IMG/VR virus record: IMGVR_UViG_3300046457_000175
Span: 55,290 to 119,289 of that record
DNA from: a virus
Length of the DNA stretch: 64,000 bases
Strand: one strand, 5' to 3'
Position 1 is the stretch's first letter, and the number at the start of each line of letters is the position of its first letter. The position numbers and the translations under genes were made by a program. The notes under the pieces were generated by a model, which had not been told where the DNA came from, made no database searches, and saw only the letters and a program-made list of their open reading frames with translations. Shown one piece after another: positions 23,480 through 43,190 of the stretch.

Positions 23480-23640
23480 GACTGCACCTCGCGGACCGGC
23501 CGGACCAGGAACAGGACGCGGCACATCATGCGGTAGAAGCGACGCTGGGCGTGCTGGTCGGTGCAGGCGCGCCAACGGCGAGCGAGGCGCTGATGCAGTT
23601 CGGAGATCTGCTCGGCGGACAGGAAGGACAGCGTCCTCAT
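23476..23640 (-). CDS. Hypothetical protein (54 aa)
   Basis: ATGA overlap. Confidence 0.5.
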   Translation of the reverse strand: MRTLSFLSAEQISELHQRLARRWRACTDQHAQRRFYRMMCRVLFLVRPVREVQS

Positions 23641-23819
23641 TGCCGCACCTCGGCGCTCTTGTCGGCCATGTCGTGGGCGACCAGCAGCAGGTCCGCGATC
23701 AGGTCGTGCAGCTCGGCGCGGGTCATGCTCGGTGCCGGCTTGAACGTGATGCCGACCGTCGACTTCCCGTGGTCCGGTCTGTGGTAGATCGTGTGGTCGA
23801 AGAACTTGGAGACCGTCAT
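23637..23819 (-). CDS. Hypothetical protein (60 aa)
   Basis: CGGAG RBS before MTVSKFF. Confidence 0.6.
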   Translation of the reverse strand: MTVSKFFDHTIYHRPDHGKSTVGITFKPAPSMTRAELHDLIADLLLVAHDMADKSAEVRQ

Positions 23820-23845
23820 GGTCGACTCCGTTTGCGTTTGCGCTG

Positions 23846-23860
23846 TTTGCATTCAAGCAA
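23846..23860 (-). promoter_or_regulatory. Operator-like motif TTGCTTGAATGCAAA
   Basis: Exact copy at head of leftward operon. Confidence 0.7.
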
Positions 23861-23911
23861 GGACAAAGGCAAGCGCAAATTGCCATGTCCGTAGAACTGC
23901 GGATGATGAGA

Positions 23912-24007
23912 TGGCTGCACGAGTGGGCCTCGAACCCACCCCTTTAGTGAAATAATTTCACGTCCACCGGGTCTGCCGGTGCGCTCTACCAGCTGAGCTA
24001 CCGTGCA
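23912..24007 (-). tRNA. Atypical tRNA or tRNA-like RNA, nominal anticodon AGA (Ser), long variable arm
   Basis: TGCACGG TA GCTC AGCTGGTA GAGC G CACCG GCAGACC CGGTG [25-nt extra arm] GTGGG TTCGAGG CCCAC TCGTGCA G CCA. Confidence 0.75.
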
Positions 24008-24036
24008 GCCATCACGCCATCCAAGGGGGCAACCCC

Positions 24037-24065
24037 TTGATTTCCATTTGCATTTGTGCTATAGA
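24037..24065 (+). promoter_or_regulatory. Sigma70-like promoter TTGATT-N17-TATAGA
   Basis: Canonical spacing; divergent from the tRNA-like gene. Confidence 0.5.
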
Positions 24066-24072
24066 AAAGCCA

Positions 24073-24192
24073 ATGGATATCCCGTCTCCGGCCCAGATCG
24101 CGGGCCTTCTTGCCGCCCTCAGCGCCGCCATTTTCGCAGCGCATCTGGTACAGGCATACCGCGACATCAGGGTCGGGGAAATTCCAGAATAA
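24073..24192 (+). CDS. Membrane microprotein (39 aa)
   Basis: Own translation MDIPSPAQIAGLLAALSAAIFAAHLVQAYRDIRVGEIPE. Confidence 0.45.
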   Translation: MDIPSPAQIAGLLAALSAAIFAAHLVQAYRDIRVGEIPE

Positions 24193-24496
24193 TTCCCGGA
24201 ATATTGGCCGCCGGGGGATTTATCGGTCCCGGTTTTCGAATTTCGAAGGCCGCCTCCAGCTCGACGATCGTGGCTTCGATCACGTCGACCGAGACACGGG
24301 GGGAGAAGAGGACCGAGAACGACTCGGCCAGGATCGCCGCCTGCTTCACGGTCAGGCCGGTACGCCCCTGATGGGCGGCATAGAGGACCCTTAGCCGGTC
24401 CCGAGCGTTCCCGGGCCGCATGGCCAGAGTGACGCCAAACCCTACAAATCCAGACATCAGACGCGCTCCTCCATTCGTGGGCCGCCGGTTAGGCAC
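24167..24496 (-). CDS. Hypothetical protein (start uncertain)
   Basis: ORF track. Confidence 0.4.
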   Translation of the reverse strand: MPNRRPTNGGARLMSGFVGFGVTLAMRPGNARDRLRVLYAAHQGRTGLTVKQAAILAESFSVLFSPRVSVDVIEATIVELEAAFEIRKPGPINPPAANIPGIILEFPRP

Positions 24497-24855
24497 ACCC
24501 TCAAGATTGAACTACGCTAGGGGGTACAGAGAGAGGGGGAGAGAGGACGAGCCAGTGCTTGAGCCTGATCTCGTATCCTCTCCAGACGATCGCCTGAGGC
24601 ACACAGAGGGCGCCTACAGCCGGTCAAAACCACCAGATCGAGGCCAGAACCATGAAAGTTCGTCGTTTCGACCTTTCGCTTCCCATAAAAGCAAATTTCC
24701 AATTTCGGACTGAAATCGACCAAACGGGCCTCTCAGAACACCATATGTAGTGCCCAAGAGGCCCAAAATGACCCCAAAAGGGGGGTCTAGACACCTGAAA
24801 TGAGGTGGGACCTACTAGATATTGATTTTGTCCTTGGTCCGAGGACGACGGACAC

Positions 24856-25005
24856 CTATCTGGTGAGGGCTTCGAGCCGGGAGATTTGCATCTCCAGACC
24901 GGATGCCGAGGCTTTGCCGGCGAGATGCCAGCCAGCCCATGCAAACGCACAAAGAAAAACAAACGCGACGGGGAGGGGGATGATGATGCTCGACAGTCTT
25001 CTCAT
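24856..25005 (-). CDS. Membrane microprotein (49 aa)
   Basis: CAGGAG RBS; MRRLSSIIIPLPVAFVFLCAFAWAGW. Confidence 0.6.
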   Translation of the reverse strand: MRRLSSIIIPLPVAFVFLCAFAWAGWHLAGKASASGLEMQISRLEALTR

Positions 25006-25106
25006 GACGTACTCCTGTTTACTGTTTGGTCCCTGGGGTTGATCGCCATCCGGACGCTCAGGCGGGGGTCCGGCTCCCCATGCCCCGGGTTGATCCCGGG
25101 TTGCAT

Positions 25107-25334
25107 TCATGCAAAGCCAAAGGCACGACGAACGGTGACGTCGAGCGGCATGGTTGCCCTCATACGGGAGCCGGTGATGACGGCGTCCTCGAGGTCGTCG
25201 GTGTAGTAGGCACTCGGCTCGGCTGCGGCGTAGCCAAGCTCGGCGTATGAGACGCGGAACTCGCGGTCTTTGCGGCTGATCCGCATTGCGGACATGGCCA
25301 GGCGCTGACGAGCCTCGGTGAGGGTGATCGACAT
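25107..25334 (-). CDS. Conserved phage hypothetical protein
   Basis: EFRVSY...AYYTDDLEDAVITG motif. Confidence 0.7.
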   Translation of the reverse strand: MSITLTEARQRLAMSAMRISRKDREFRVSYAELGYAAAEPSAYYTDDLEDAVITGSRMRATMPLDVTVRRAFGFA

Positions 25335-25361: not shown

Positions 25362-25907
25362 TTACTTGGGCAGATGGCGGAGGCGATCGGGGCGATCGAT
25401 CAGGCCGGACCCGCCGACGCGGATGCGCTTACTGAACTGATTGACCTCGATGGCGCCCACGGCTCGGCCATGGGCATCCTCGATCGTGTAGGTCTTGGTG
25501 GTGCGGTACTCGGGCAGCTCGCAGTCGTCGCTGACTGCGTAGGGGTCGCGTCCCTTGCGCTTCTTCGGCGCCTCACGGCGGATGCGGGAGGGTGGCGCGG
25601 GGTCGTAGATCGACTTCGGCTCATAGTGGCCGGTCTTGCCCAGCGGGTCCGGGGTCTCGTTGTGGTCGTCCATGGCCTCGAAGCGCTTGAACTGGGCGTA
25701 CTCGGCTTTGTCGCGGAGGTCAGAGACAGACAGGCGCTCATGCATGGCCGGCACCTTGGGCACTGGGGCGAAGTTGCCAGCCAGCCAGCTGTCGGCGCTC
25801 TCACGCTTGGCGTCGTAGTCGTTCTGCCGGATCTCGCGGAGGACCCGGCGCTCGGCCTCGGTCATGATTTGGCGCGCAGTTGGGCGTTCGATGAAGCGCT
25901 TGGCCAT
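25362..25907 (-). CDS. Hypothetical protein (181 aa)
   Basis: MAKRFIERP start. Confidence 0.7.
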   Translation of the reverse strand: MAKRFIERPTARQIMTEAERRVLREIRQNDYDAKRESADSWLAGNFAPVPKVPAMHERLSVSDLRDKAEYAQFKRFEAMDDHNETPDPLGKTGHYEPKSIYDPAPPSRIRREAPKKRKGRDPYAVSDDCELPEYRTTKTYTIEDAHGRAVGAIEVNQFSKRIRVGGSGLIDRPDRLRHLPK

Positions 25908-26090
25908 CGCAAAATCTCTCAAGATAGGGGTGGGGGTGTTTTGCCCTGAGGGCGAAGGTCGGATTTTGTCGAGGCGCGCTCACGTCCGGGCGCCCGGAGA
26001 AAAGCCGAAAAAAAGCCAGCCGAAAGGCCCCCCGGGGATTACCCGGGAGGTCTCAGGCCGTTGGGTGGTTGAGGGGTAGGCGAGAGGGGC

Positions 26091-26885
26091 TTACGCCGCC
26101 TCCGCCATTTCCTCCAGTTCCGCCGGGATCAGGGTGGCAGCTTCCGCCGTGGTTTCGCCGAATGCTTCATCGACGTCCGCCGCGACGCTTGCCCGCTCGA
26201 GTCGCACGCCTTCCAGCTTGGCGATCAAGAGAGTGAGTTCCGCATCGGTCAAGTCCATGGCCTTTTTGACCATGCCGTCAACCACGTCCGCCTTTTCCTT
26301 TTCGGTCGCGGGCTTGGAAAGCCGCTGTGTCAGCTTGGCGAACGAGTCGCCATAGGTGGCCTTCACAAATTCGCGGAAGTGTTCCGCTTGTGCCTGCCCG
26401 TCCGCGCCGCTGGCCTTCAATGCCAGAATGTCGCGGATTGCACCGGCATGATTGGTGCAGACGTCCGACATGAGGCGGAAGGACCATGTCCGGAGCTTGG
26501 CCAGCCCGTCGACGAGTCGCGCCTTGTCGGGCTTGGCAAAGTCCGCGTTGGCAGTTTTGCCGCCGTCGACATAGTCCGAAATGGCCTTTTCGCGGTCCTT
26601 GCCCTTTTGCGCCATGCAGCGTCCAAGGATATCATCCGAGTCGCGCCACACAGTGTTGCCCTTGACGGCATACTTTTTCAGGAAGTGGCGGAAGGTGGCC
26701 TTATTCGCCTTTTCCGTAATTTCCTTGTCGGTTTCGGCGCGCTCGACTTGGCGGTTTGCCATGACGAGTCCAAGGGCAACGGTCGCGGTGAAAGCCGCGC
26801 TATCGTCCTCTTTAACCGCCTTGATCGCGGCGGAAAGGGCAATTTCGCCCAGTGTCTTTGCCGTGGTTGCAGTTGCGGTAGTCAT
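26091..26885 (-). CDS. Ala/Lys-rich hypothetical protein (264 aa), first gene of the leftward arm
   Basis: AAGGA RBS; many GAA/AAA/GCA codons unlike neighbours. Confidence 0.8.
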   Translation of the reverse strand: MTTATATTAKTLGEIALSAAIKAVKEDDSAAFTATVALGLVMANRQVERAETDKEITEKANKATFRHFLKKYAVKGNTVWRDSDDILGRCMAQKGKDREKAISDYVDGGKTANADFAKPDKARLVDGLAKLRTWSFRLMSDVCTNHAGAIRDILALKASGADGQAQAEHFREFVKATYGDSFAKLTQRLSKPATEKEKADVVDGMVKKAMDLTDAELTLLIAKLEGVRLERASVAADVDEAFGETTAEAATLIPAELEEMAEAA

Positions 26886-33261: not shown

Positions 33262-33337
33262 GCTGGGGTAGCTCAGATGGTAGAGCGCCGGATTTCCAAT
33301 CCGTTGGTCGTGGGTTCGAACCCCACCCCTCGCTCCA
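33262..33337 (+). tRNA. tRNA-Gly(TCC)
   Basis: 76-nt cloverleaf, loop TTTCCAA, U73, encoded CCA; mismatches at 3:70 and 27:43. Confidence 0.88.
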
Positions 33338-43117: not shown

Positions 43118-43190
43118 GTCGGTGAGCCCGCGGGGGTGGCCTGGTCTCCAAAACCAAGGTCCGAGGGTTCAACTCCCTACACCGGCGCCA
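43118..43190 (+). tRNA. tRNA-Trp(CCA) with atypical D arm
   Basis: Acceptor GTCGGTG/CACCGGC, loop CTCCAAA, G73, CCA. Confidence 0.78.

Follow-up and report, generated by a model that had tools for sequence, protein, structure and literature searches.

A tRNA-shaped element, here called W, lies on the minus strand at positions 23912..24007 of the 64,000-nt stretch that we analysed (the window), which comprises bases 55290-119289 of a 119,289-bp IMG/VR phage record with a completeness rating of 98%. We put the chance at about one in two that W is the gene for a non-decoding, tRNA-shaped small RNA that acts in trans through its upper half. Sequence comparison further suggests that W is a member of a small family whose elements occupy a single, fixed slot in phages and prophages of Bradyrhizobium. 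The part that does the work is probably the upper half of the tRNA shape, in which a 7-bp acceptor stem would be stacked on a 5-bp T stem with its UUCGA loop, and a D-type loop containing GG could form the elbow.

ARAGORN, a scan that a preliminary description of this DNA had proposed, called a tRNA-Ser(aga) of 96 nt on the minus strand at 23912..24007. Its cloverleaf agrees arm by arm with that description, which had reported a tRNA-like gene with an AGA anticodon, intact acceptor, D and T arms and an encoded CCA. The acceptor stem UGCACGG/UCGUGCA has 7 bp with one G.U pair and is followed by U8 and A9. The D arm has a 4-bp stem (GCUC/GAGC) and an 8-nt loop (AGCUGGUA), and the T stem GUGGG/CCCAC carries the loop UUCGAGG; G73 and CCA complete the 3' end. 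The variable region is 25 nt long and consists of 3 nt, a hairpin of 6 bp with a 3-nt loop and 7 unpaired nt, again as first described. W shares with canonical tRNAs the 7-bp acceptor stem, the 5-bp T stem, the UUCRA loop, the G53-C61 pair, G18 G19 and U8. All five stems are perfect, with 27 stem pairs and no mismatch, and the same five helices were returned by RNAfold without constraints. Together with its flanks, W folds with a z score of -4.4, and none of 200 shuffles folded equally well. When the 64-kb window was dinucleotide-shuffled 60 times, ARAGORN called a tRNA once (about 0.02 per window), so the call of W is not a chance event.

The anticodon arm is sealed. On the stem CACCG/CGGUG, the loop GCAGACC carries C33 and C37, in line with the earlier remark that it lacks U33 and purine 37, and in the unconstrained fold G32 pairs with C38 to give an arm of 6 bp and a CAGAC pentaloop. 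W also gave no match to the Rfam tRNA model (RF00005) at its gathering threshold of 29 bits. On these grounds W is very probably a non-decoding tRNA mimic, as had been suggested.

The flanks ATGGC/GCCAT had been described as extending the acceptor helix to 12 bp. The extension is confirmed, but the helix is longer than that, with about 21 pairs from pair 7:66 to 24021/23902, interrupted by two mismatches and including two G.U pairs. Its 5' leader strand (24008..24021, minus strand) is conserved in the relatives L014 and L016, the leader region aligning with W by blastn at 83% over 71 nt. Its 3' trailer strand (23902..23911, minus strand) is continued by A76 at 23912 and by C75, C74 and G73; the trailer sequence AUCUCAYCAUCC is conserved in L014. 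In this helix G73 and the CCA end are paired with the leader strand.

Closest to W is the phage's own tRNA-Gly(UCC) (window 33262-33337), with 59 of 76 positions identical, an almost identical D arm and an identical T stem. This closeness and the shared arms indicate that the body of W is that of a class I tRNA. The two have in common U8, an encoded CCA, the T loop with its stem (GUGGG/CCCAC) and a D arm in which a 4-bp stem carries the loop AGCUGGUA. W differs from tRNA-Gly(UCC) in its acceptor sequence, in an anticodon loop (GCAGACC, without U33 or R37) that can close to a pentaloop, and in a 15-nt AT-rich perfect palindrome (7-1-7, at 23947..23961) that appears as an insertion in the variable loop when the two are aligned and forms the extra arm of W. 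The palindrome occurs once in the window, against 0.07 copies expected by chance. Compared with a canonical class I tRNA, W has in addition a leader and a trailer that lengthen the acceptor helix, and it falls below the Rfam tRNA threshold.

A motif census placed a promoter-like motif, P1 (TTGGCU, 14 nt, AAUGCAAA), at 24047..24073 on the minus strand, about 40 nt upstream of position 1 of W. P1 is conserved at 83-90% in the element-bearing relatives L010 and L014. It is a degenerate (variant) copy of a motif that recurs in this phage, and its promoter function is putative. Between P1 and W lies a 7-bp GC-rich hairpin (24022..24039, minus strand) that is likewise conserved in both relatives. 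A canonical copy of the recurrent motif, P2 (TTGCTTGAATGCAAA, 23845..23878, minus strand), is found between W and a gene for a 60-aa protein, so that W sits just upstream of a promoter-like motif heading the next gene. P2 is orthologous to the single motif of those relatives that have no element. Genome-wide there are 44 ATGCAAA sites of this motif class, compared with about 6 expected from a composition estimate, and at least 12 of these sites are near-identical TTGCTTGAATGCAAA-type copies. The copies run in the same direction as the gene blocks, and several precede a start codon by 13-40 nt. The motif has the palindromic core TTGC-N6-GCAA (window copies are found, for example, at 650, 8759, 8846, 23852, 31062, 49981 and 51722) and may represent a phage promoter class or a site for a CRP/FNR-type regulator.

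To compare the slot among phages, relatives were gathered via a 186-aa neighbouring protein, for which a protein homology search listed 40 relatives, and the slot could be read in nine distinct lineages. An element is present in three of the nine: the phage carrying W; L010, an IMG/VR contig from Bradyrhizobium sp. th.b2 (element at 7824-7934 of L010); and L014, which is the same as L016 from Bradyrhizobium sp. SZCCHNR1093 (element at 7214-7302 of L014). All three lineages carry P1, the hairpin and the element in the same slot. The remaining six (BDU-MI-1, L017, L019, L020, L021 and L023) have the single motif orthologous to P2 and no element; the element is therefore dispensable.

In the L010 and L014 elements, a 7-bp acceptor stem abuts a 5-bp T stem closed by a G-C pair over a UUCGA loop (T loops UUCGAGC and UUCGAUC, respectively), and GG lies within the first hairpin loop. 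All 12 acceptor and T pairs are intact in each, with most positions differing from W. Both sides of the pair have changed relative to W at acceptor pairs 1, 2, 4 and 5 and at T pairs 50, 51 and 52, while pair 3:70 is C-G in all three elements. Pairs were counted by script and not with a covariance model, as MAFFT could not register the three acceptor strands. Position 73 is an A in the L010 and L014 elements, neither of which encodes CCA, and the middles of the three elements differ in length and fold and are not alignable. What W, L010 and L014/L016 have in common is thus the slot, the stems, the UUCGA loop, G53-C61, the GG loop and a non-canonical middle. The three distinct sequences are compatible both with compensatory evolution and with repeated replacement of the slot by tRNA-derived pieces, which they do not separate; in either case it is the upper half that persists.

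A scan for this upper half across the whole phage genome returned only W and the real tRNAs. At the element-bearing loci it returned only the syntenic elements, plus one isolated short-range match elsewhere in L017, against a background of 4 matches per 100 shuffles of 64 kb. Neither ARAGORN at default settings nor Rfam gave a match at the elements of L010 and L014. ARAGORN runs with lowered thresholds or allowing introns made mutually inconsistent calls there (Asn-att, Cys-gca, and Gln/Gly with an 'intron'), which we rejected as evidence for real tRNAs.

Across lineages, identity is 83-90% in the block formed by P1, the hairpin and the leader, compared with 65-76% in the neighbouring coding DNA. 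The slot is also a mosaic, recombination junction, since L014 and L017 are 82% identical over 3.2 kb and this similarity ends about 70 nt before P1. The loci compared were L014:7080-7635 and L017:7044-7361, from two prophage-type relatives; the first gene downstream of W is similar to its counterpart in L017 and not to the one in L014. Exact-pattern scans of IMG/VR with the anticodon arm, the P1/hairpin block and the upstream motif gave chance matches or the contig of L010 only. Searches with the neighbouring protein yielded few or no new relatives in IMG/VR, metagenomes and GTDB genomes, nothing in PLSDB and BDU-MI-1 only in INPHARED, and a P1-block BLAST over 401 Bradyrhizobium genomes found G001 only. 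The family itself is listed in none of the databases searched. Among deposited phages, Bradyrhizobium phage BDU-MI-1 is the sole relative of the window phage.

From these features we infer transcription, processing, stability and a trans-acting role for W as follows. The RNA would be transcribed from P1 with a short 5' hairpin leader, and would fold into an L shape that host tRNA-maturation enzymes could handle, RNase P cutting 12 bp from the T loop and 3' trimming halting, in W, at the encoded CCA. A stable RNA would then accumulate, barred from decoding by the sealed anticodon arm, and would act in trans, tying up a protein of the host or of a defence system that reads the acceptor end, the T arm or the elbow but not the anticodon. 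Early expression is plausible from the gene layout. Several features speak against this reading: pairing of the leader with G73 and CCA could interfere with RNase P and leave the 3' end inaccessible, L010 and L014 encode no CCA, and six relatives do without the element. We found no pointer to a partner in the form of an antisense target, a tRNA-related phage enzyme or an annotated neighbour. The phage has no TROVE, CCA-adding or RtcB gene, and complementarity of W to its own genome was limited to chance-level 10-12-mers.

The alternative that survives best, though we consider it unlikely, is that the three elements are decaying tRNA pseudogenes, left after an ancestral phage tRNA gene at the slot lost its function. 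W would then be the least decayed copy, or one refreshed by gene conversion from tRNA-Gly; L010 and L014 would be further gone, and the six remaining lineages would have deleted theirs. Phage tRNA genes turn over quickly, which suits this view, as do the absence of a canonical anticodon loop from all three elements, their unalignable middles, the six relatives without an element and the near identity of the D and T arms of W to those of the phage tRNA-Gly. However, decay should strike stems as often as loops, and the 27 stem pairs of W contain no mismatch around a loop that is unusable. In L010 and L014, each of which keeps 12 of 12 upper-half pairs and the UUCGA loop, everything else has changed. 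Random decay does not account for either pattern. The promoter-like block in front of the element, moreover, is more conserved than the adjoining coding DNA, which a pseudogene does not lead one to expect.

Doubtful in our view is a second possibility, that the fold is a cis-acting cutting signal. The fold, together with the leader/trailer helix of about 20 bp in W and L014, would be a site for RNase P or RNase III, and cleavage there would free the downstream early mRNA from the RNA ahead of it or define the 5' end of that mRNA, the excised piece having no function. RNase P processes the CI RNA of phage P4 and the C4 RNA of phages P1 and P7, tRNAs punctuate mitochondrial transcripts in the punctuation model, and RNase III sites occur in T7 early RNA; such precedents favour a cutting signal. 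So do the position of W between two genes in a long co-oriented block, the finding that the conserved parts are only those that RNase P recognises, and the conserved flanks of W and L014, which form a long, nearly perfect helix. That helix is absent from L010, however, and a bare cutting signal would not need the perfect D, anticodon-type and extra stems of W. The canonical P2 lies between W and the next gene, so that the downstream mRNA needs no cut, and P1 directly upstream gives W the look of a transcription unit of its own. As W is preceded by a promoter-like motif of its own and the next gene is served by P2, we rank a trans-acting stable RNA above a cutting signal.

A more specific version of a trans-acting RNA is speculative. 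The slot could hold a fast-evolving family of sealed-anticodon tRNA decoys that soak up a host abortive-infection toxin directed at the acceptor end or elbow of tRNAs and not at the anticodon. Each lineage would offer an acceptor end, a T arm and an elbow, to which W would add a long variable arm and a CCA end. Nucleotidyltransferases of the AbiEii/MenT type are a candidate toxin class. MenT3, of the AbiEii family, is an acceptor-end toxin that lengthens the CCA end of tRNAs; a long variable arm is the feature by which it selects its substrates, whatever the tRNA body, and a class I tRNA given such an arm is accepted (Liu et al. 2024, PMC11162799). With its class I body, long variable arm and CCA end, W is by nature what was constructed in that work (PMC11162799). 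The parallel with the MenT3 substrate is structural only, and the pairing of a toxin with the element is hypothetical. AbiEii-family genes were found in 57 of 101 sampled Bradyrhizobium genomes (56 of 100 without G018, which is flagged as unpublished). If the decoy reading were true, the turnover of the element middles would reflect an arms race.

The preliminary description had favoured a seryl-chargeable tRNA mimic, serving as a seryl donor or a charged decoy, and this we regard as improbable. In the ARAGORN register W does have G73, G2:C71, C11:G24, a 6-bp extra arm and an encoded CCA, and the anticodon would be no obstacle, as SerRS does not read it. The three Ser elements named earlier, G73, G2:C71 and C11:G24, are thus present, but each is common among tRNAs, and the label "Ser" is only ARAGORN's reading of the loop triplet. 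Class II tRNAs have a short D stem, an enlarged D loop and a variable arm with 1-2 unpaired nt before the T stem. W departs from this tRNA-Ser architecture, with a class I D arm (4-bp stem, 8-nt loop) on a body closest to tRNA-Gly(UCC) (59/76), and with 7 unpaired nt 3' of an extra stem that is itself a unique inserted AT-rich palindrome. Neither syntenic relative encodes CCA or has a comparable arm, and both carry A73; in W itself G73 and CCA are paired with the leader. Seryl identity is accordingly a part of the earlier account that finds no support.

Very improbable, in turn, is an element that works at the level of DNA (an attachment site, a cruciform or a protein-binding palindrome) or an RNA made from the plus strand. 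W does contain a long inverted repeat and the perfect 15-nt palindrome. A generic scan for sigma-70 promoters and terminators near W found consensus sites on the plus strand only, bracketing W; a plus-strand RNA would use the promoter-like site at 23880-23907 (+) and the terminator-like hairpin at 24022-24039 (+), the plus-strand form of the hairpin between P1 and W, followed there by a T-rich run. Against both variants, the UUCGA T loop, the GG D loop and the G.U pairs read correctly on the minus strand only, in all three lineages. Against an attachment site, Bradyrhizobium genomes match only the generic D arm of W, over 18-24 nt and in three genomes, whereas the same kind of search readily found a positive control. 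W was therefore rejected as an attachment site or att fragment. The control is a phage stretch of about 50 nt outside the window (G000:C1:25155-25206; L028:256-307) that matches the 3' end of tRNA-Pro(GGG) from the Bradyrhizobium host with 98-100% identity. This stretch is probably the attP core of the phage, which for that reason is probably temperate. It is preceded by a motif, CAAATGCAAAT, that resembles P1. Also on the plus strand (24022-24066 and 24075-24194), the terminator-like hairpin with its T-rich run overlaps a TTGATT-17-TATAGA site and a hydrophobic ORF of 39 aa; this ORF (24075-24194), which follows a sigma-70-like site, lacks conservation in L014.

A working tRNA-Ser(AGA) that decodes UCU can practically be dismissed: ARAGORN does call one, and UCU is rare in the phage (7% of Ser codons, which says little either way), rare codons being of the kind often supplied by phage tRNAs, but C33, C37 and the possible G32-C38 pair, the failure of the Rfam tRNA model and the lack of any anticodon loop in the relatives all stand against it, and we know of no bacterial precedent for A34 in a Ser tRNA.

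We compared W with known tRNA-like RNAs. The best match within the Rfam clan, in a local search allowing E values up to 10, was tRNA-Sec (RF01852), at 22 bits against the 47 required and E = 0.069, and it was rejected; tRNA-Sec has an 8/5 acceptor/T geometry and a 6-bp D stem. A tmRNA, including the two-piece form, was rejected as well, as ARAGORN made no tmRNA call even at 80% thresholds and pair 3:70 is C-G and not G3:U70. Y RNAs of the YrlA type, from bacteria and phages, are said to mimic tRNA. They have a T arm, a D arm and an acceptor-like stem and tRNA enzymes act on them; a Ro-binding stem joins their 5' and 3' ends, and they travel with a Ro (TROVE) gene. Like W they are non-coding with those three parts, but the phage carrying W has no match to TROVE, and no Y-RNA family was among the matches of an Rfam 15 scan, so a Y RNA/YrlA assignment was rejected too. 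The P4 CI and P1/P7 C4 RNAs function by pairing with sites of their own operon. They resemble W as small RNAs that are encoded in the leader of an early or immunity operon of a phage and released by host tRNA enzymes (for W, a predicted release), but the complementarity of W to its own genome is not above chance.

The nearest analogues of a non-decoding RNA such as we propose are the stable RNAs C and D (species 1 and 2) of phage T4, which have tRNA-like ends, are matured with tRNAs, do not decode and have no known function. W would likewise be a phage-encoded small RNA with tRNA-like ends that does not decode. The two T4 RNAs lie within a tRNA gene cluster, whereas W stands alone among early-type genes, 9 kb from the nearest tRNA and on the other strand, and there is no sequence relation between them. 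Phage RNAs that keep a tRNA body but do not decode form a class barely described in print, and if its RNA is made and kept, W would be a clean case of decoding given up. An automatic annotation pipeline would list W as a phage tRNA-Ser and so bias both tRNA counts in phages and arguments on codon supply. The slot offers a built-in comparison of three lineages with and six without the element, and the hosts are cultivable, Bradyrhizobium strains th.b2 and SZCCHNR1093 carrying relatives. W thus makes the role of such RNAs, T4 RNAs C and D among them, directly testable.

The preliminary description had placed W alone at the head of an early operon. Its isolation from other tRNAs is borne out: ARAGORN found five ordinary tRNA genes (Gly, Met, Trp, Cys and Asn), all on the plus strand at 33-51 kb, the nearest 9 kb from W and on the opposite strand. 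W does not head the whole block, however, as minus-strand genes with the GC3 mark lie upstream of it at 24167-24496, 25107-25334, 25362-25922 and 26091-26885. The marked genes on both sides of W are all on the minus strand and continue downstream with 23637-23819 and more leftward. The small gene upstream (24167..24496, minus strand) has an uncertain start codon, and its 3' end is conserved in BDU-MI-1, L010, L014, L017 and L019-L021. The first gene 3' of W (23637..23819, minus strand) codes for 60 aa with a GC3 of 0.89; it belongs to no known family and had no match in Pfam or PHROG. The ten proteins neighbouring W gave no Pfam family and only unnamed PHROGs. Among the tRNA calls, the tRNA-Trp(cca) at 43118-43190 (+) scores below the threshold of the Rfam tRNA model with a normal anticodon loop and an unusual-looking D arm. 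Finally, about 600 bp at 24500-25100 of the window contain no ORF with the GC3 pattern of the neighbouring genes and may be non-coding.
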